A stretch of 58,247 bases of DNA. It comes from a virus (Duplodnaviria; Heunggongvirae; Uroviricota; Caudoviricetes). A model generated the notes under the pieces. That model saw only the letters and a list, made by a program, of their open reading frames with translations, was not told the DNA's origin and did no database searches. A program made the position numbers and the translations under genes. Of the stretch, positions 20,484-36,032 are shown piece after piece (position 1 is the first letter of the stretch; every line of letters begins with the position of its first letter). Location of the stretch: IMG/VR virus record IMGVR_UViG_3300014205_000176; one strand, given 5' to 3'.

Positions 20484-22742
20484 ATGATATTAACAACAGA
20501 AGATATGCGCGCTAGACTTAGTGAACAACCACAACTTGATATTTCAAATGAAGCTTATCGTTTTGATTGGAGCTGCTACACTGGTAATCTTAAATGGCTA
20601 CAAGATCGTACAATATACATTACTCAGCACGGGAGTCGTGCATATGGTACATCCACCCCTACCAGTGACCTTGATATCAGGGGAATTGCAATAGCCCCCA
20701 AGGAATACTATCTTGGGATGACCAATAATTTCGAGCAGGCTACGTCCAAAGACCCAGACCTGGTTATCTTTGAGTTGCGCAAGTTCCTAAAATTGGCCTC
20801 GGAGTGCAACCCTAATGCTCTGGAAATCATTTTCACCGATGAGCAGGACCACTTCTATGTCTCTAGGATAGGTAGACTACTCCTGGATAATAGAGATCTG
20901 TTCTTATCTAAGAGGGTGAAGTTCACTTTCCAAGGATATGCCAATGCTCAGATGAAGAGAATCCTTACCCATAGGCGGTGGTTGTTGAATCCAATCACTC
21001 ACCAGCCTACTCGGGAGGAATTTGGACTGCCATCTAGGACTGTAATCCCTACAGACCAGGTTATGGCTGCCAATGCTGCGGTCAAGAAGCGGATTGATGA
21101 ATGGAACTGGCACGAGATGGAGAGTCTAAGTCCATCCGTACGCCAAGAAATCCAGGATGAGTTCCTTCGGCGCATCACTGAAATCACCAACTGGAGTTTT
21201 GAAGAGGTTGATGACAAGATTTGGATGGCCGCAGCCAACAGTTTAGGGTTCTCCACGAACTTCATCGAGTTCTTAGATAAGGAAAGGCTGTACACAAACC
21301 GTTTACGGGACTGGCAGCACTTCAATGACTGGGAGAAGAACCGAAATCCTGCCCGCGCAGAGTTAGAAGCCAAGTTTGGATTCGATTGTTATTCTGAAGA
21401 TACAGAATTCCTAACCAATGATGGTTGGAAATCATTTGACAACATTACTAATGATTGTTTGTTGGCAACTGTATTTATAAAAGAAGGCATTTCCTCTAGG
21501 AGGTTTCTTGGAATTGAATATCAGAAACCTATAGATAGGTTTGATTCATTGTATTCTGGGCCGATGTATCATATTTTTGGGATACATACAGATTCATTAG
21601 TTACAGCTAATCACAGAATGTTATTTCAAAAATCCGAAAGGAAAAGTAAGAAAAAGCATGGATGGGTTCTTGAAGAGGCAGCTGTTCTTCCAGATACTTT
21701 TGATATTCTTATTGCTCCAACTCCACGAAAAACAACTTTCTCTAATAAAGAATTATTTGATGGCTTGCCGATACCTATTATGGCGTACTTGTCATTGATG
21801 GGCTGGTATTTAAGTGATGGATGCGCGACGTTTGATACAGATGGAGATATGCATGTTAAGAGCATTAGAATAAGCCAGAATCCAAATGGTAAACTTTCTA
21901 GATCTATAAAAAGGTGGAATAACAAATATGGAGAAATTGCCAATGGATCAATTCATGTTTATAAAAAACAACCAAACGAATACAACAAAGAAGAACATGA
22001 AGAGATGATTCTTGATGTTAGAAATTACAATGTTGCAATTCGTATGATTGATGAATGTGGTTATAAGGAAAATAAGAGAATCCCAAGATATATCTTCAAT
22101 TTATCTAAATCGTTGTTAGAGTGTTTTTTGCTAGCTTTGATTCGTGGTGATGGAACTACAAGGGAACATAAGGGAAAGATCGATAGTTACATTTACTATT
22201 CAAAGTTAAAAAATCTTGCCAGCGATGTTCAGGAATTGGCATTGATGGCCGGATGGGAAACTGCATTATGGGGGCCTTATTTAAATACAGATCAAGAAGG
22301 ACGTGAGTGTTTGATGTATCAAGTACACCTTAGGAAAAATCCTGGACAAACTAGAAGGCTTATTAGGTGTCAAAATGTAGAAAAGATAGAAGTAGAAAAA
22401 CAACGGATTGTATGTTTTACTGTGCCAAATGGAACTTTGATTACTAGGCGCAATGGCAAAGTTGCTATTCATGGTAATTGCAAGCACGCAATGCACCTAG
22501 TTCGCCTATCAAGATGCTGCAAAGAGCTGATGACGGACGGTATCATGCGTGTTCGAAGACCGGATGCAGAAGAACTTCTGGCCATTCGCAATGGAGCATG
22601 GACGTTTGATGAGCTTTTGGAGTGGTTCAACAGGCAAACAATAGAGATTGATGCACTCTATGAGCATTCGAAGCTTCCAAACACCCCTAACATAAAGAAG
22701 ATCAGCGAGCTGTGCGTTCAAATGGCAGAGGCATCGTGGTAA
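20484..22742 (+). CDS. Pol-beta-superfamily nucleotidyltransferase (RlaP/PF10127-like), intein-containing
   Basis: HGSRAYGTSTPTSDLDIRG, NPNALEIIF; exteins rejoin as KFGFD-C-KHAMHLVRL. Confidence 0.85.
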   Translation: MILTTEDMRARLSEQPQLDISNEAYRFDWSCYTGNLKWLQDRTIYITQHGSRAYGTSTPTSDLDIRGIAIAPKEYYLGMTNNFEQATSKDPDLVIFELRKFLKLASECNPNALEIIFTDEQDHFYVSRIGRLLLDNRDLFLSKRVKFTFQGYANAQMKRILTHRRWLLNPITHQPTREEFGLPSRTVIPTDQVMAANAAVKKRIDEWNWHEMESLSPSVRQEIQDEFLRRITEITNWSFEEVDDKIWMAAANSLGFSTNFIEFLDKERLYTNRLRDWQHFNDWEKNRNPARAELEAKFGFDCYSEDTEFLTNDGWKSFDNITNDCLLATVFIKEGISSRRFLGIEYQKPIDRFDSLYSGPMYHIFGIHTDSLVTANHRMLFQKSERKSKKKHGWVLEEAAVLPDTFDILIAPTPRKTTFSNKELFDGLPIPIMAYLSLMGWYLSDGCATFDTDGDMHVKSIRISQNPNGKLSRSIKRWNNKYGEIANGSIHVYKKQPNEYNKEEHEEMILDVRNYNVAIRMIDECGYKENKRIPRYIFNLSKSLLECFLLALIRGDGTTREHKGKIDSYIYYSKLKNLASDVQELALMAGWETALWGPYLNTDQEGRECLMYQVHLRKNPGQTRRLIRCQNVEKIEVEKQRIVCFTVPNGTLITRRNGKVAIHGNCKHAMHLVRLSRCCKELMTDGIMRVRRPDAEELLAIRNGAWTFDELLEWFNRQTIEIDALYEHSKLPNTPNIKKISELCVQMAEASW
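21387..22478 (+). mobile_element. intein with LAGLIDADG homing endonuclease (364 aa)
   Basis: starts CYSEDTEFLT, ends VAIHGN|C; LMGWYLSDG and LLALIRGDG motifs. Confidence 0.9.
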
Positions 22743-22751
22743 AATAGCAGC

Positions 22752-22772
22752 GGGCGGTAGTAATTACCGCCC
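22752..22772. terminator. hairpin between convergent genes
   Basis: GGGCGGTA-GTAAT-TACCGCCC. Confidence 0.6.
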
Positions 22773-22808
22773 ATCAGAAGCCTTACACGAGTATATCTTT
22801 AAACGCCT

Positions 22809-23156
22809 TTAGGTAATTCGAACCTTCTGCGTACTAGCAGGTACCTTAGACACCTTGGGTAGGGTAATTGTTAATTGCCCATTCTTCAATGAAGCCCCAA
22901 TGGCGTCCTTGTTGATGTCTTTGGGAACATAGAAGGCGAATGATTTAGTACCATCCTCATTCTTTGCCTTGAGGTTTAGTACGTTTTCAACAATCTCGAT
23001 CTCAATCTCTTCCTTTTCGAACCCAGGGAGATCGAGCTTCAGAGAATAACTATCTCCATTGTCTTTGACCTTGCGAGTGAACGCAACCGCATTGTCCAAT
23101 CCTTCTGTGATTACTTCATCAATGGCATTTAGTGCATCAAAAATGTTTCTAATCAT
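22809..23156 (-). CDS. Hsp20/alpha-crystallin small heat-shock protein
   Basis: YSLKLDLPGFEKEEIEI...ASLKNGQLTITLPK; SD AAGGA before the ATG at 23156. Confidence 0.9.
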   Translation of the reverse strand: MIRNIFDALNAIDEVITEGLDNAVAFTRKVKDNGDSYSLKLDLPGFEKEEIEIEIVENVLNLKAKNEDGTKSFAFYVPKDINKDAIGASLKNGQLTITLPKVSKVPASTQKVRIT

Positions 23157-23600
23157 ATGTATTTCCTTGTTCAGATTGTTCTGAACAGCCAGCAATCTAA
23201 ACATCCAAAATTTATCGTCAAGGGATAATGGTTAATTTTTATGTGGATATTGGCCGGCCAACGTTTTCGCTGCGAGCCGCTAGACCAGCTTGAGCCAAAA
23301 CCCGTTTTTACGGCCTTTATGGGCATTTGCTAGACTGCTAGACCAAAAATACATCACCTGAGTACCCTATAGGAGGGTATATCTCTCCTTAATTAATCTA
23401 TAGTATAGTAGGTATAGCAGAGTTAACAGAGAGGCAGGAATTAGGAGGGTTTCGTTGCCGGCCGCTTAGCGAAGGTCTAGCTTTGCGGCGCGCAGCCTGT
23501 GGCAACATGCACAAACCACTTCGCACTTTTCAATCTCGATGCGAATTAGATCTATCTTATATCCTTGGCTAACCATACTAGCTATTTCTTTTACCCTAAT

Positions 23601-23845
23601 GTGCAAGAAAGCCCCTGCCTTTAGGCAGGGGATGAATTGCCAATTATTAATAAGTCGAGAGATACTAATACTACCCTAGAATATCAGATGTTTAAAGCTT
23701 TCAAATATAGAATCTATCCCAATTCTTCTTAATCAGAAGAATTAGTAAATATTCTACAATTCGACATGGAACAGGCCGAATTCAAATGCCTTGATGCCCG
23801 AAGGGCCGAAAGGAAGCCCACAGGCTAGTCCTGTGGGTAGTTCAC
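23601..23845 (+). mobile_element. miniature non-autonomous IS200/IS605 (IS1341-like, tnpB-derived) element
   Basis: left-end hairpin GCCCCTGCC-TTTA-GGCAGGGG; tnpB start MFKAFKYRIYPNSS* (23688-23732); tnpB-like 3' remnant; right-end hairpin CCCACAGG-CTAGT-CCTGTGGG followed by TAGTTCAC; left boundary uncertain by about 3 nt. Confidence 0.85.
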
Positions 23846-26268
23846 ATAACTATGGTCAGTTTATCTGTACTCCTAGTCGCGCCAGTGTATAACCAACGGC
23901 GGTAGTTGTCCTCGCTGACTGGGGCTGGTCTTTCGTTGAACAGGATGACGTTTCCCATCTGTGACCCCTGACAATTCCAGCCACAAAATCCATTTTGTAT
24001 GAATTGATTTCCCTCTGGAACTGTCACACATATAGATTCCGTATCAGATACCTCTTCAATTGAATAGATTTTTGTATGATGATAATTTAATTTCTCATTT
24101 TCACTATCAATTTTCATCAGATTATCTCTAGAAATATACCCTGCTATTTTAGAATTATTTCGTGTTGAGCTGTCTTTTATCAGATTAGCGAATTGTTTTG
24201 AAATTGGTATTCGAAATTTTCTAAAGGCCTGGAACTTAAGTAATAACCTATCATTTTTAAATGAAGAAACAAATCCAATTTTATCTTTAAATATCTTACA
24301 GTATGACCCATAAATACACAATCTATAATTATTGTTATATGGAAATATACTTGAAACGATCCCAAACCCCAACAACATTAATTGTACTATTTTTATCACA
24401 TCTAGTTTTTTATTAGAAAATTCGATATGATCTATTTTCCCGCGTTTTATATTTACCGTAGCGTCTTCAAATAAACCTTTTAAGAATTTACATCTAATAG
24501 AATTATTACATGCGAGAATACATTTTGGAATGTTTTTTGTATGTGGAGATAATCCATCTATACAAGAAAGCCAAGAAGATAGTTGGGTGGAATTTATTTC
24601 AGAGGTATACCACCCAAGTTTGTGTTCTGTTCTGCTTTCTTTAGGTTCCACACCAAATAGAACTCTACACAAATGGGAAAATCTATCTGTTACATCTTTG
24701 TGTCTTTTAGCTAATCTGAATCCTTTTTTAAAAATGCACCCGTCAGCCACCATAAGACCAAGAAATTCTGCGAAATCTTCACTAACTAAAGATGGTAAAT
24801 TATAAATTTTTGCTCTTATATCTGTGTTTATATCAGATGGTAATAGATATGTTGTTTTACAAGTAATTGGCGGCAACAGAGATATTCTAGTTATATCATT
24901 TACAGATAACTCAGCAAATGTTTTTCTTTCATAATTTCCAGAGTTAACATTCCATATATCGATACCATGATCTATTGTAGCAGTTAATGAATATCCTTCT
25001 TTAGTTTTGATTTTGAGCATTTTCTGCTTAGTTGATATTTTATTAATGTATTTTTTTTCTCCATATGGGGATAATATACTGCCACAATTTTGTATTTCAC
25101 TTATTCTTTGAAGTCCGAATTCTGTTTCTATAAATGTGTGTGGGTGAACACATTTATGAACTGTCAGGGCGTATCCGTAGTCAAAGAGCAACCCTACTTC
25201 GTTCCAGTGTTTCACTTCCATACCGAAAGTTTCAAGCTCAGAGAATGAACTGAAGGTTTTCTGGTATCCGAATTGATACTTGCAGAGATTGTTTACCTTC
25301 ACTTCAACTCCTTCATATGGAAAGTTGAGTTTGGCTGACCAGAAGTGATCATCAATCTCAGTAACTCCAGATTCAAAGTACCCGCGATATCCATTGTACA
25401 TCGGTGGTTGCTTAGAATTTACTTTTACAACGTTACGTAAGCAGATCACTAGGTCATTTGAAAGAGGTACTTGGCTTACGTTGCCAAATACAACGTTTCG
25501 AATCATGGTATTCAACCGTACCCTAGTAGCGTTCATGTAACAAAGAACTGCGCAGTCTAGAATGTCCTCTGGATCTTGGCGGCCTTTGTACACCTGCCTC
25601 AAGTAATCTACGTATTGAGACTTTGGAACGATTGAAATGTGATTATTGTCGGATAATGATGGTGGTATCTTGCCAGTTTCCCTAACCACCATAGATAAAT
25701 GTATGATTGGATTGTCCTGTGCCTGCCTATGAATCTTCTCCAAGCGCAAGATTGGAGCCTGCATTAGAGAGAACTTACCTTCAATAGGTGGTAGCTGCCC
25801 ATGATCTCCAACTGCAAGTACATCAATACCATATGAGGATAGGTCTCTGAAGATATCCTCAGAGATCATAGAGGCTTCATCAAGAACTATAACGTCATAA
25901 TCTAACTTTGGGTTCTTTGCCCAGTACACAACTTCGCCTTTATCATCTTCAATCGGTTTGTAGATGAGGCGATGAATGGTTCCGCAGTAGTGGCCGCCAT
26001 CCCCGAAGGTAATTCCCTGGGCTCGAAGCTTGGTCCCAAGGATCGATGCGGCTCTACCGGACAGTGCGCAGAAGGCAAATCGAATGGCCGTTCCAAATTC
26101 CTTTGCAAGAACCGATGTAAGCGTAGACTTACCTGAACCCGCATACCCACCCAATGTAAGTAATTGTGGGTTGGTTTGTTTGGGATGAACCTTCCCTCCA
26201 TTGGCTAGCCACCTGGCCATTATTTGGTACGCGGCCCCTTGGTCATCTGACAGAGTAATTGCGCTCAT
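23842..26268 (-). CDS. Dda/RecD2-like SF1B DNA helicase, intein-containing
   Basis: GYAGSGKST, VLDEASMI, VGDHGQLPPI, IHRQA, YALTVHK-[intein]-CQGSQ, LYTGATR; SD GGAG before the ATG at 26268. Confidence 0.92.
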   Translation of the reverse strand: MSAITLSDDQGAAYQIMARWLANGGKVHPKQTNPQLLTLGGYAGSGKSTLTSVLAKEFGTAIRFAFCALSGRAASILGTKLRAQGITFGDGGHYCGTIHRLIYKPIEDDKGEVVYWAKNPKLDYDVIVLDEASMISEDIFRDLSSYGIDVLAVGDHGQLPPIEGKFSLMQAPILRLEKIHRQAQDNPIIHLSMVVRETGKIPPSLSDNNHISIVPKSQYVDYLRQVYKGRQDPEDILDCAVLCYMNATRVRLNTMIRNVVFGNVSQVPLSNDLVICLRNVVKVNSKQPPMYNGYRGYFESGVTEIDDHFWSAKLNFPYEGVEVKVNNLCKYQFGYQKTFSSFSELETFGMEVKHWNEVGLLFDYGYALTVHKCVHPHTFIETEFGLQRISEIQNCGSILSPYGEKKYINKISTKQKMLKIKTKEGYSLTATIDHGIDIWNVNSGNYERKTFAELSVNDITRISLLPPITCKTTYLLPSDINTDIRAKIYNLPSLVSEDFAEFLGLMVADGCIFKKGFRLAKRHKDVTDRFSHLCRVLFGVEPKESRTEHKLGWYTSEINSTQLSSWLSCIDGLSPHTKNIPKCILACNNSIRCKFLKGLFEDATVNIKRGKIDHIEFSNKKLDVIKIVQLMLLGFGIVSSIFPYNNNYRLCIYGSYCKIFKDKIGFVSSFKNDRLLLKFQAFRKFRIPISKQFANLIKDSSTRNNSKIAGYISRDNLMKIDSENEKLNYHHTKIYSIEEVSDTESICVTVPEGNQFIQNGFCGWNCQGSQMGNVILFNERPAPVSEDNYRRWLYTGATRSTDKLTIVM
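23974..25152 (-). mobile_element. intein with LAGLIDADG-type homing endonuclease (393 aa)
   Basis: starts CVHPHTFIET, ends GFCGWN|C, inside the HK(S/C)QGS helicase motif; FLGLMVADG. Confidence 0.9.
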
Positions 26269-26320
26269 CCTAATTTCTCCCGCGCATCGTACACGGATCG
26301 ACCGGATATATCCAGCGATT

Positions 26321-27094
26321 ATGTCGTTTTGGAGGCCAGCAGATAGCTGTTTGTACGTAGTTTCGGACATTAATGGATTGCATAATGAACTGAAACTTAT
26401 ACTTAGTCGAATATTACCACTTAGGAAAACCGGAGGCCAAATAGATAAATTGATTCTTCTTGGTAATTACATAAGCGGAACAAGGTCACATGAAACAATT
26501 GATCTGATATTAAAAGCACAAAAGGAAACTCCAGGGCAAATCATATGTCTTCTAGGAGACAATGATCTAAAACTACTCAATTCAATTGATCCACAAGGAA
26601 CCCCAGAGGATTACGGGGCATGGCTATCGTCAGGAGGTGAAAACGCACTCCTTGGATATTTGGAACTTATAGGATCTGAACTCTCAAATCCATATCTAAT
26701 CAAACGGCAATATCTTCAAAGATTTATTCCGCAAGAACATTTAAACTTCCTGAGTTTACTTTTGCCGTATTATGAGAATGATAACTATATCTTTGTCCAT
26801 GGTGGGTGTGATCCAAATATTCCATTAGAGAAACAAAACCCATCTGTGTTAACAAAGGATAGGAGTGTATTTAATTTAGTATATAATGCCGGAAGTAGAT
26901 TTAGATGTCAATGGAATAAGACTATTATAACTGGTGGTATTGGTAAGAAGGATGGACGACCATTGGTTCATGATAAATTCATTACCCTAGATGGAAGTTA
27001 TGCCGAGAAACTCTACGTGTTGGAATTGAATTCAAGACAGATATTCTCGGCACGTAAAGGAAAGAGTAGACTTGTCAAGGAACTAATACCTTGA
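26321..27094 (+). CDS. calcineurin-like metallophosphoesterase fold with degenerate catalytic motifs
   Basis: VSDING, LGNYISG, LGDND, FVHGG correspond to DxH, GDxxDR, GNH(E/D), HGG. Confidence 0.8.
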   Translation: MSFWRPADSCLYVVSDINGLHNELKLILSRILPLRKTGGQIDKLILLGNYISGTRSHETIDLILKAQKETPGQIICLLGDNDLKLLNSIDPQGTPEDYGAWLSSGGENALLGYLELIGSELSNPYLIKRQYLQRFIPQEHLNFLSLLLPYYENDNYIFVHGGCDPNIPLEKQNPSVLTKDRSVFNLVYNAGSRFRCQWNKTIITGGIGKKDGRPLVHDKFITLDGSYAEKLYVLELNSRQIFSARKGKSRLVKELIP

Positions 27095-29727: not shown

Positions 29728-32118
29728 ATGAATAGATTTTCAGAAAAGCAAATTTCCGCCCAGGAATCTCTAACATCCAAAAGACTAGAAAGCATTTCTG
29801 TTGGATATCAAAATACTTCCAGCAAATCAAGACCAGAACAGAGTCTTATCGAATTGATGCATTGGGCCAAGGACATTGTCAGTAATCAAGATCGTGGTGA
29901 TTGGGTTCCGTTTATTCACAACAAGATTAGTATTGATGGTTCATTCTTACAATTCTGCGAAGAAACTGGAGTAACTGTCAAAGCTCTTCATACCGATGCA
30001 ATTACTTCTTGGCAAAGTGACTTTCATGATGAACACTTTGTTGGAGTTGGAATATTCAACATACAAAAAGACGATCTTAAGTTCTATCATTGTGGATTAT
30101 TCCATAAGGGAAACCAGAATGAGGACGAGGTTAGCTTTTTTGTTTTGGTTAAGCGGACAGATTTTGAAGCTTATATATCCTTACGTAATGAATATGAAGC
30201 TTGGCAGAATAAGAGGGAGCGTGACAGCCAGGAGATTGAGGTTATTGGTGGTGATGCAATTCCATATGATCCGAGTACTTCTTGGGATGATATCTTCTTA
30301 CCAGATGATTTGAAGAGTAGGATTATTACTACCATCGATGGCTTCCTTGGATCTAAGGCCATTTATGAAAAGTTGAAGGTTCCGTGGCGGCGCGGGATTG
30401 GATTTTGGGGTTCTAGGGGCTGCCATGCTGCTGGTACTGGAATATTAATGTATGATGGTACAGTGAAAAAAGTTGAAGATGTGGTAGTTGGTGATTTGTT
30501 AATGGGTCCAGATTCTAAGCAACGAGAAGTTCTTAAATTAGTTTCTGGCTCTGATGAAATGTTTGAGATACAACCAACAAAATCAGATCCTTTTATTGTT
30601 AATAAGGATCATATTCTTCATCTTCGGTGCCGTAGGCCAAGACCAACCGTTCCACCAAAACTCAATATAACAGTATCAGATTTTTTAAGTCTAACTCAAA
30701 ATGCTCAAAAAAACAATTATCAAATGTGTTTGTCTCCAGCTTTAGAGTTTGGAGTTAACCAAACTCTAAAGCTGGATCCATATTTTTTGGGTATATGGCT
30801 TGGTGATGGTAGTAGTCATGAAGCATCAATTACCACAGCAGATCTTGAAATAGATAATTTTGTATGCAATTTTGCTATACAATATTCTTGTCAAGTTACG
30901 AGAACGAAATCTGTTGCTACGGCAAAATGCGATACGTTACACATAGTTAGTGGTGGGAAAAGGAATCCTATAAATGCATTATTGCGAGAGATAAACGTAT
31001 TAGATAATAAACATATACCTTACCAATATCTAACAGCATCGATTGATGATCGTTTGAAATTACTTGCAGGTATTATTGATACAGACGGTTGTTATACTAG
31101 TGTAACCTGGAGAGGAACTGAAAAATTAAACAAAAAAGGCAAAGGATATAAGGGCTATTTTGAAGTACTGCAAAAGAGTCAACAATTAACGAAAGATATA
31201 TGTTTCTTGGTTAAAAGTCTTGGGTTACAGGTAACTGTAAAGGAATGTATTAAGAATATAAAATCCATTAATTTTTCTGGTCGATATTATAGGATTGGTA
31301 TATTTGGAAATATTGAAAAGGTTCCGGTTATATTACCAAGAAAGAAAGCGATTTTGGGAAGGCCTAATAAAATGCCGTTGATCCGGGGGATTAAATCCAT
31401 TAGGAGTATGGGTGTTGGAAATTATTATGGATTTGTATTAGATAAAGATCATTTATATTTAACAGATGATTTTTATATACATCACAACTGCGGAAAAACC
31501 TCAACTCTTCGGGTAATTATGGCGCAATACCCGCAGCTAAAGCCGGTTACTATTCAGCCTGGGCATTCGACTCCTGATGAATTGTTAGAGGAAGCTTTTG
31601 AATATGCCGAGCAGCATTCCCCTGCACTTTTATTCTTTGAAGATCTGCAAGAGTTGGTTAAGACAATTGATATTCGTCATTTTCTGCAGCTTTTGGATGG
31701 ACTACAGAAGCGCGATGGCATTTTGACGGTGGTAACTGGCAATGATTTTTCTAACTTGGAAGAGAATTTGAAGAGTCGTCCGCGTCGTTTTGATAGTTTC
31801 TTTGAATTTCCATTGCCGGATGTTAATCAAACCACAAAATATCTTAATAGATATCTAGTTGATATATTACCAAGTAAGAAGATTGCAGCAATTGCAAAGA
31901 AGGCTGTTAAGAATAAACTTACCTATGCTCATTTGCAAGAGCTTTATTTCAATGCTGTATTCATCGCTATACCTGAAGGTCGAGAATTACCGAACGAGGA
32001 CAACTTAGAATTGTCTCTAAAACAAGTTTTGAAAGAAAAGAAAGCAGCAGATTCTGACTTTGCAGAGAGACAGCGTGACCTAACAGATGACGAAGAAGAG
32101 GATGGAGAGGAAATATGA
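29728..32118 (+). CDS. AAA+ ATPase, intein-containing
   Basis: Walker A GSRG-[intein]-CGKT; Walker B LLFFEDLQ; LLDG; RPRRFD. Confidence 0.88.
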   Translation: MNRFSEKQISAQESLTSKRLESISVGYQNTSSKSRPEQSLIELMHWAKDIVSNQDRGDWVPFIHNKISIDGSFLQFCEETGVTVKALHTDAITSWQSDFHDEHFVGVGIFNIQKDDLKFYHCGLFHKGNQNEDEVSFFVLVKRTDFEAYISLRNEYEAWQNKRERDSQEIEVIGGDAIPYDPSTSWDDIFLPDDLKSRIITTIDGFLGSKAIYEKLKVPWRRGIGFWGSRGCHAAGTGILMYDGTVKKVEDVVVGDLLMGPDSKQREVLKLVSGSDEMFEIQPTKSDPFIVNKDHILHLRCRRPRPTVPPKLNITVSDFLSLTQNAQKNNYQMCLSPALEFGVNQTLKLDPYFLGIWLGDGSSHEASITTADLEIDNFVCNFAIQYSCQVTRTKSVATAKCDTLHIVSGGKRNPINALLREINVLDNKHIPYQYLTASIDDRLKLLAGIIDTDGCYTSVTWRGTEKLNKKGKGYKGYFEVLQKSQQLTKDICFLVKSLGLQVTVKECIKNIKSINFSGRYYRIGIFGNIEKVPVILPRKKAILGRPNKMPLIRGIKSIRSMGVGNYYGFVLDKDHLYLTDDFYIHHNCGKTSTLRVIMAQYPQLKPVTIQPGHSTPDELLEEAFEYAEQHSPALLFFEDLQELVKTIDIRHFLQLLDGLQKRDGILTVVTGNDFSNLEENLKSRPRRFDSFFEFPLPDVNQTTKYLNRYLVDILPSKKIAAIAKKAVKNKLTYAHLQELYFNAVFIAIPEGRELPNEDNLELSLKQVLKEKKAADSDFAERQRDLTDDEEEDGEEI
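30421..31488 (+). mobile_element. intein with LAGLIDADG homing endonuclease (356 aa)
   Basis: starts CHAAGTGILMYDG, ends YIHHN|C; FLGIWLGDG and LLAGIIDTDG. Confidence 0.93.
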
Positions 32119-35946: not shown

Positions 35947-36025
35947 GTGGCAATTCCTCTCACAGGGGAGACTTCGCACCGTAGGTGCGTCCGGGCCAAA
36001 GGTCCGGAGTGGGTTTCCTTGCCAC
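35947..36025 (+). ncRNA. candidate structured RNA upstream of an HNH gene
   Basis: closing stem GTGGCAA/TTGCCAC; internal hairpins CGCACC-GTA-GGTGCG and TCCGGGCC-AAA-GGTCCGGA. Confidence 0.4.
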
Positions 36026-36032
36026 GATTTTC

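Follow-up and report, generated by a model that had tools for sequence, protein, structure and literature searches.

A gutted tnpB element that supplies a helicase stop codon and keeps an omega-RNA-type scaffold in a huge-phage genome

The window analysed here, that is, the whole stretch of 58,247 nucleotides of the IMG/VR virus record IMGVR_UViG_3300014205_000176 (Caudoviricetes), is phage-like: nearly all genes lie on the plus strand, and tRNAs, inteins and HNH genes are present. At the end of a helicase gene it carries a 251-bp element (23595-23845, plus strand), which we identify with high confidence as an internally deleted, non-autonomous (PATE-like) derivative of a tnpB-only (IS1341-type) element of the IS200/IS605 family. 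A locus retrieved via the exact Hsp20 protein (L094) is 100% identical to window positions 22000-26204 and occupies positions 220,934-227,329 of the JGI contig Ga0378408_0000016 (463,377 bp), a huge-phage contig; through this identity, the window can be placed at about 201,126-259,372 on the contig. The same contig holds a full-length copy of the element (L002, at 318,549-325,706), which lies 97 kb from the mini element and encodes a 385-aa TnpB (P0003). The features at the locus are the following.

23469-23591, minus strand: C-terminal fragment of an HNH endonuclease, about 40 aa (...KCEVVCACCHRLR...), matching phrog_3106 (E=3.5e-7) and phrog_2255 (E=3e-6)
23590-23594, plus strand: TTTAC, the target/transposon-adjacent motif (TAM), left of the element, in a motif position common to other copies
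23595-23687, plus strand: left end including the tnpB 5' leader; the portion from 23628 is 89% identical to L002
23688-23732, plus strand: remnant of the tnpB start, 14 codons (MFKAFKYRIYPNSS*) with a TAA at 23730-32, located by tblastn of P0003 residues 1-20
23744-23745, plus strand: deletion junction with a 2-nt microhomology (AG), where the two blastn segments from L002 overlap
23751-23845, plus strand: omega-RNA-type scaffold, the last 95 nt, assigned by model R1, covariation and the ISDra2 architecture
23842-26370, minus strand: Dda/RecD-like helicase, 842 aa, ending in ...DKLTIVM and then TGA

What remains of the element is its left end with the first 14 codons of tnpB, followed by the final 101 nt of that gene and the right end. 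In blastn comparisons with L002, window 23628-23745 corresponds to the left end, leader and tnpB start (89%), and window 23744-23845(+7) to the tnpB 3' end and the right end (94.5%). The internal deletion of about 1,003 bp is in frame and has removed the whole RuvC nuclease; its junction lies at -101, 13 nt upstream of stem 1 of the scaffold. No functional protein gene is left between the ends, tblastn of P0003 matching residues 1-20 and 355-385 only, and tblastn detected no other tnpB in the 58-kb window. The original prediction, made from the letters of this DNA, had described a miniature tnpB element with both ends intact, in which the tnpB start is fused to the tnpB 3' end and the nuclease is deleted; the two L002 segments, the size and frame of the deletion and the two 8-bp terminal hairpins bear this out.

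The left end consists of TTTAC, a 17-nt spacer ending in CAAGAAAG, the hairpin CCCCTGCC-TTTA-GGCAGGGG and then ATGAAT, the 8-bp hairpin (23612-19/23624-31) being enclosed by an outer GCAA/TTGC stem. The right-end hairpin (23817-24/23830-37) has 8 perfect base pairs and 0 chance matches. These hairpins are subterminal, set in from the ends of the element by 17 nt on the left and 8 nt on the right, and the two ends are not mutual inverted repeats. The tnpB leader contains promoter-like boxes (TCGAGA-16-TAGAAT, 23655-82), which are weak consensus matches only. The layout of the left end is the same as in the distant members L014, L015, L059, L068 and L074. In a first alignment, the left end of the window copy looked degenerate beside the cloverleaf of L002, because the L002 group has a derived left end; we rejected this view, as the simple hairpin is the family norm. 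In the derived subgroup (L002:2870-2945, L003, L004, L012 and a solo left end at window 35947-36032), three hairpins within the same 5-bp closing stem (a four-way junction) replace the single hairpin. The closing stem covaries (CCCCG/CGGGG, CCTAG/CTAGG, CTCAT/ATGAG), as does hairpin 2 (GCGGC/GCCGC vs GCACC/GGTGC). Rfam contains no family that matches the element, the omega RNA or the left end, and a comparison by eye of the left end for a short copy of the target gave weak similarities.

The element terminates in TTCAC (23841-45), and its left boundary is 23594|23595, directly after TTTAC. All 14 right ends that we compared, drawn from the window, IMG/VR, JGI metagenomes and NCBI, run to ...GGGTAGTTCAC, and their flanks diverge from the next base. 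The shared left sequence starts at TTTAT in L001-L004, L007 and L012 and at TTAT in L014 and L015, with unrelated DNA before it; two loose-end copies in sequencing-run contigs share the same left start. TTAY stands to the left of 12 copies, the motif at the TAM place of other copies being TTTAT, CTTAT or GTTAT (TTAT in 10/12 other copies). When the element of L003 is removed at TTTAT|...TTCAC|, an open reading frame (ORF) of about 100 aa is restored with no target duplication, and its halves are collinear with the uninterrupted homologues P0138-P0164 (e.g. LLVEQEDLY|KTFSSCMGEDEVHITFQCSACGVETD vs P0157, P0141 and P0144), which provides independent support for this boundary rule. A scarless joint without target duplication is a hallmark of IS200/IS605 peel-and-paste elements (PMC10055086). 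The gene that the full-length element of L003 (L003:2867-4163) interrupts is a conserved phage gene of about 100 aa with two CxxC motifs (zinc-ribbon-like), of which many intact homologues exist. At L002, a second TTCAC lies 22 nt beyond the right end (L002:4164-4185), after TCGTGGCGA, in which 9 nt from the start of the left end are repeated; an earlier event at this site may have left it as a scar.

The helicase stop codon TGA (23842-44) lies inside the TTCAC of the right end, and the G of the last helicase codon (ATG, Met) is position 23845, so that all these bases belong to the element; it does supply the helicase stop, as originally predicted. The reverse complement of the TTTAC motif holds the pre-insertion TAA stop (23591-93). 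Rejoining the flanks on the minus strand gives ACC ATA GTT AT|G TAA, which reads TIVM*, and the present allele, AT|G TGA, encodes the same protein. Thus, G+TGA has replaced G+TAA on the helicase strand with the protein unchanged, and on this reading of the codons, the insertion onto the last base of the final helicase codon is fully silent. The original prediction had called the insertion nearly silent with a stop at 23591-93: that TAA is indeed the one used, and the qualifier falls away, the protein being identical. Its restored C-termini (TIV-ILG* or TIV-ITLG*) had to be replaced by TIVM*, as its left boundary had been set some bases too far in. More generally, the reverse complements of TTTAY and TTCAC contain TAA and TGA, so that an insertion of this family on an opposite-strand stop codon is silent.

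Helicase relatives agree with this reconstruction. The eight closest helicases (63-79% identical by best local alignment) end in TIIL*, TIII*, VIL* or TIIT*, one residue after TI[IV], at the length of the rejoined window helicase; a different helicase end in relatives without the element had been named as a result that would speak against the prediction, and these helicases all stop at the same residue position. The window helicase itself contains a LAGLIDADG intein (residues ~442-795) and a UvrD_C_2 domain that is complete up to residue 841. Its closest syntenic relative, L179 (helicase, Hsp20 and RlaP), has no element and 79 nt between the helicase TGA and Hsp20. In L179, the helicase stop is followed by GGGGTTCAC; a reading of this sequence as the scar of a right end was rejected, CCCC being part of the conserved region upstream of Hsp20. 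Exact-protein look-ups of the helicase (842 aa; 792 aa), aimed at the empty allele, returned no record, and searches of IMG/VR with peptide patterns found no helicase relatives. The 131-kb IMG/VR fragment G001 is without the helicase region, and the GenBank phage collection holds no match for the mini element or its surroundings.

The HNH fragment forms the left flank of the element and is wedged between the element with the helicase stop and Hsp20. Its presence here and its absence in L179 suggest that an HNH gene once followed the helicase and was truncated as far as the helicase stop. After such trimming, the element would have hit a TTTAC overlapping the helicase stop; direct insertion would imply the pre-insertion sequence ...TTTAC|ATAACTATGG..., i.e. 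...TTTAC|ATAAC....

By alignment and base pairing, every module of an ISDra2-type omega RNA is kept in the window copy. The modules and the adjoining flank, all on the plus strand, are as follows.

23758-65/23775-82: stem 1, AATTCGRC/GYCGAATT, with the loop GGAAC
23769-72 with 23840-43: pseudoknot of GAAC with GTTC, in the same -6 to -3 place as in ISDra2
23789-92/23810-13: stem 2, CCTT/AAGG
23796-99/23803-06: stem 3, GCCC/GGGC, longer in L007, L011 and L012
23817-24/23830-37: stem 4, which is the right-end hairpin, then TTCAC at 23841-45
23846-23865: right flank ATAACTATGGTCAGTTTATC, the predicted guide/target by the TnpB guide position rule, antisense to the last helicase codons

The ISDra2 scaffold is 116 nt long; its stem 1 loop pairs with -5 to -3 (the GUUCA tail), followed by stems 2, 3 and 4, and sequence 5' of -116 is dispensable (PMC10097598). 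In an alignment of ten close copies (A6), 92% of the cells are paired and seven pairs show double changes, a result that 0/500 shuffles reach. A larger alignment of 20 distinct sequences (A7) likewise gave 92% paired cells, with double changes in 20 of 26 pairs and again 0/500 shuffles reaching this, and slid controls were only 30-49% paired; the covariation in A7 is to be read with the caveat that this alignment was built by fitting to the model R1. The pseudoknot pairs vary at most to G-U, and covariation therefore neither supports nor opposes the pseudoknot. Under model R1, whose seed includes the window copy, this copy scores 112.1 bits, compared with 115.5 bits for L002 and 112.7 bits for L003, both full-length, and 47.9 bits for a smaller derivative (the L004 type), which keeps only 46 nt. 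The window copy also has one change in the loop of stem 4. By covariation and R1 score, what had been noted as an omega-RNA-like end is a complete scaffold.

In TnpB systems, the DNA that immediately adjoins the right end serves as the guide, whose natural target is the joint of the empty donor, made up of the TAM and this flank (PMC10055086, PMC10097598). By this rule, the window copy would take its guide from the right flank, ATAACTATGGTCAGTT(TATC), a sequence matching the empty helicase allele; the original prediction had named the same guide, and it follows from the established position rule. Right flanks differ in every copy, and the guide sequence had 0 matches in IMG/VR. Two GC-rich contigs that have no relation to the phage (L009 and L013) also carry the right-end module GGAAGCCC-hairpin-GGGTAGTTCAC, the stem of which covaries, one contig being LKMJ01000140.1 (a 46-kb contig) and the other a brine metagenome contig that looked haloarchaeal. 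From such comparisons, the guide-proximal stem and the pseudoknot tail seem to be conserved far beyond this phage lineage.

The candidate nuclease is the TnpB of L002, which a C-terminal tnpB fragment of another copy, L001, brought up as the query of a protein search; L001, a gutted copy on a 131-kb viral contig, had first been recovered by an exact IMG/VR search with the right-end hairpin pattern. P0003 carries PF12323, PF01385 and PF07282, aligns with ISDra2 TnpB (8BF8/8EXA) over residues 3-367 (E=2e-70) and has an intact D-E-D triad (GIDLG, TEDL, HDRD); judged by these features, it is apparently active. Of the full-length tnpB or tnpA with the same ends for which a search of the genome had been suggested, tnpB was thus found in the same contig; a search of the window found no tnpA. 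The nearest bacterial TnpBs are at most 49% identical and the exact right-end pattern had 0 matches in species genomes, and for these reasons no host is assigned. At a locus of a complete 640-kb IMG/VR phage from the same sample (L181, G004:144365-144727), a Y1 TnpA (PF01797, E=9e-35) adjoins a divergent 405-aa ORF; no right end of the mini-element family was found at that locus. Thus, some huge phages carry their own IS200/IS605 transposase.

Further derivatives are present in the 463-kb contig. A gutted copy of the L001 type combines a truncated left end with the last ~165 nt; its ORF, P0002, is recorded from a contig of 463,377 bp. The L004-type copy (L183:952-1201; 209 bp) lies at about 261.7 kb, roughly 1.3 kb past the end of the window, and retains its left end with 11 codons of tnpB but, of the right end, just the final 46 nt (stem 4 only); it sits between two ORFs that together make a DNA polymerase III alpha/DnaE (an 886-aa PHP/pol3 core and 459 aa with HHH_6). 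The solo left-end cloverleaf at window 35947-36032 (minus strand) shares 80% identity with the left end of L002; its hairpins show compensatory changes, and no right end lies close by. On the opposite strand, its TAM-like TTCAT reads as the ATG (36033-35) of a plus-strand gene, and the insert puts 86 nt between this ATG and an AGGAGG box.

Contigs from sequencing runs contain the occupied helicase allele: a landfill run (2018) and a groundwater run (2022), the latter possibly from the source sample, each yielded contigs across both junctions, and in two more runs contigs bridge one junction each. None of the runs listed as containing this stretch is an RNA run. In these runs, the summed contig depth inside the element is 6-11x that of the phage backbone. 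The joint 23717>23798, found at backbone depth, represents the L004-type copy.

With our confidence evenly divided, we favour the reading that the locus is a silent insertion of a gutted copy whose omega RNA serves the full-length TnpB in trans for retention or homing. The element inserted by the family rule, 3' of a TTAY motif and without target duplication. Transcription would then run from the retained tnpB leader and promoter through the right end into the flank; after trimming, this RNA would be taken up by the TnpB that L002, 97 kb away, encodes. This complex would recognise TTTAC followed by ATAACTATGGTCAGTT, that is, the empty helicase allele, with the occupied site protected by the TTCAC next to the guide match. 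The empty allele would be cut in sister genomes or in co-infecting, near-identical phages, and recombination would copy the element back (retention, homing); a move to new sites would need a Y1 TnpA in trans. The intact scaffold, the retained leader with its promoter-like boxes and an apparently active TnpB on the same chromosome speak for function. Real use of the omega RNA by TnpB, as judged from these features, we consider possible, if somewhat doubtful.

Several observations weigh against this reading. The empty site would present TTTAC, with C as its last base, and other copies have TTAT; moreover, the element's own uncut end, TTCAC, is one base from TTTAC. One A.C mismatch in stem 1 is unique to the window copy, and the R1 score comes from a model with this very copy in its seed alignment. 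No tnpA was found within the window. No contig joins 23594 to 23846, in assembled contigs, which drop rare variants, and neither a true empty allele nor an excision circle was seen in the same material, which consists of contigs rather than reads; of the proposal to look for the empty allele in relatives, what has come out is L179, which lacks the element. Finally, the L004-type copy without stems 1-3 persists at phage depth, and persistence thus does not need the scaffold.

This last point also belongs to the main rival, a serious alternative that we hold tentatively: that the element is an inert relic, a recently gutted, decaying and harmless insertion whose scaffold is intact only for lack of erosion time. 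Both the gutted copy without stems 1-3 and the solo left end persist in the same genome, and the neighbourhood, with an HNH fragment and an intein, is a graveyard of selfish DNA. The stem 1 mismatch, joined by the TAA in the remnant ORF as a second change unique to the window copy, and the atypical TAM fit decay as well. However, the scaffold scores on par with full-length copies, the left end, leader and promoter-like boxes are all kept, and the genome encodes an apparently active TnpB.

An extension of the favoured reading is that dispersed gene-less guides at the ends of replication genes (helicase; DnaE), together with one TnpB, form a multi-guide weapon or gene drive, which we regard as unlikely. 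If it were true, TnpB would cut rival, near-identical phages that lack the silent insertions in their replication genes, and rivals would be destroyed or converted; the system would represent a step from a single fixed-guide transposon nuclease toward a CRISPR-like, trans-encoded guide set.

The origin of the insertion could also have been a two-step one, in which the element inserted in the HNH gene and a later deletion beside its right end brought it against the helicase end. HNH homology begins right at the TAM, and ~180 N-terminal codons of the HNH gene are missing, as this history would have it. Such a deletion, however, must end exactly at the last base of the element and leave a helicase of normal length, whereas simple rejoining of the flanks already gives the helicase length of all relatives, and precise TTAY|...|TTCAC insertions are the family norm; we therefore consider this course quite improbable. 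A cis effect on the helicase, with the hairpins acting as terminators after the stop or an element transcript acting antisense to the helicase mRNA 3' end, is very improbable: both hairpins are terminator-like on the minus strand (vs 0.7 sites expected from shuffles, at the pattern level) and transcription from the tnpB leader would by its geometry run antisense into the helicase 3' end, but the T-tracts (CTTCCTTTCG, CTTTCTTGCA) are poor, every copy has these same hairpins, whichever gene adjoins, and the closest relative has its 79 nt and no element.

Elements without genes that bear omega RNA (PATEs) have been published and would need a TnpB acting in trans (Meers et al. 2023, PMC10055086), and TnpB genes are frequent in phages (PMC12607003), with a cyanophage example. 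The PATEs of the Geobacillus stearothermophilus ISGst families resemble the window copy in having no protein gene, in keeping both ends and the omega-RNA scaffold, and in needing TnpB and TnpA in trans from other copies in the genome (PMC10055086). Unlike them, the window copy lies in an uncultured 463-kb phage, derives visibly from a tnpB-only parent by a 1-kb in-frame deletion, silently replaces the stop codon of a gene and is known from sequence alone. ISDra2 of Deinococcus radiodurans (8BF8/8EXA/8H1J; PMC10097598) shares an alignable TnpB with the parent and the same RNA plan, with the guide from the right flank; here, in contrast, the scaffold has ~88-95 nt as against 116 nt, stem 3 being short, TTTAT/TTTAC takes the place of TTGAT as the TAM, and the parent element is without tnpA. 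IStrons, which combine a group I intron with an IS605-type element (PMC10690162), are likewise TnpB-family elements that can lie within or at genes with little harm, but the element described here ends in C, not G, and is harmless by a stop-codon swap rather than by splicing. Rfam searches found no group I intron in the element or in L002, even at E<=10.

IS608 of Helicobacter pylori is the reference for the peel-and-paste mechanism. The window element resembles it in its insertion 3' of a TTAC-type tetranucleotide, the lack of a target duplication, the subterminal hairpins and the scarless donor joint (PMC10055086). It differs in that the left and right hairpin sequences are not the same and in that TTAC goes with AAAG here but TTAT with AAAG in another copy, which leaves the cleavage-guide pairing unconfirmed. 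An apparent IS608-type covariation of the last TAM base with the base that precedes the left hairpin (TTAC/AAAG vs TTAT/AAAA) was dropped for that loose-end copy, which has TTAT with AAAG.

Gene-less guide-RNA elements are thus already known, and as the evidence stands, the element is ordinary selfish DNA of a described type. What sets it apart is that a stop codon has been exchanged exactly and without effect on the protein, and that a clear parent and sibling derivatives occur in one huge-phage genome. The locus offers a clear case, from a virus, of a TnpB transposon reduced to its guide-RNA part, with the likely nuclease in the same genome, and a simple cost-free landing route, in which the target motif TTTAY and the right end TTCAC read as TAA and TGA on the other strand. 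Should the RNA be in use, the locus would be relevant to the question of TnpB systems as homing drives between competing phages and to the origin of trans-encoded guides before CRISPR-Cas12.

The region around the helicase is rich in selfish elements. Further apparent inteins lie in an RlaP-like nucleotidyltransferase (window 20484-22742; a weak LAGLIDADG match) and in an AAA ATPase (window 29728-32118; Hint and homing-endonuclease domains).

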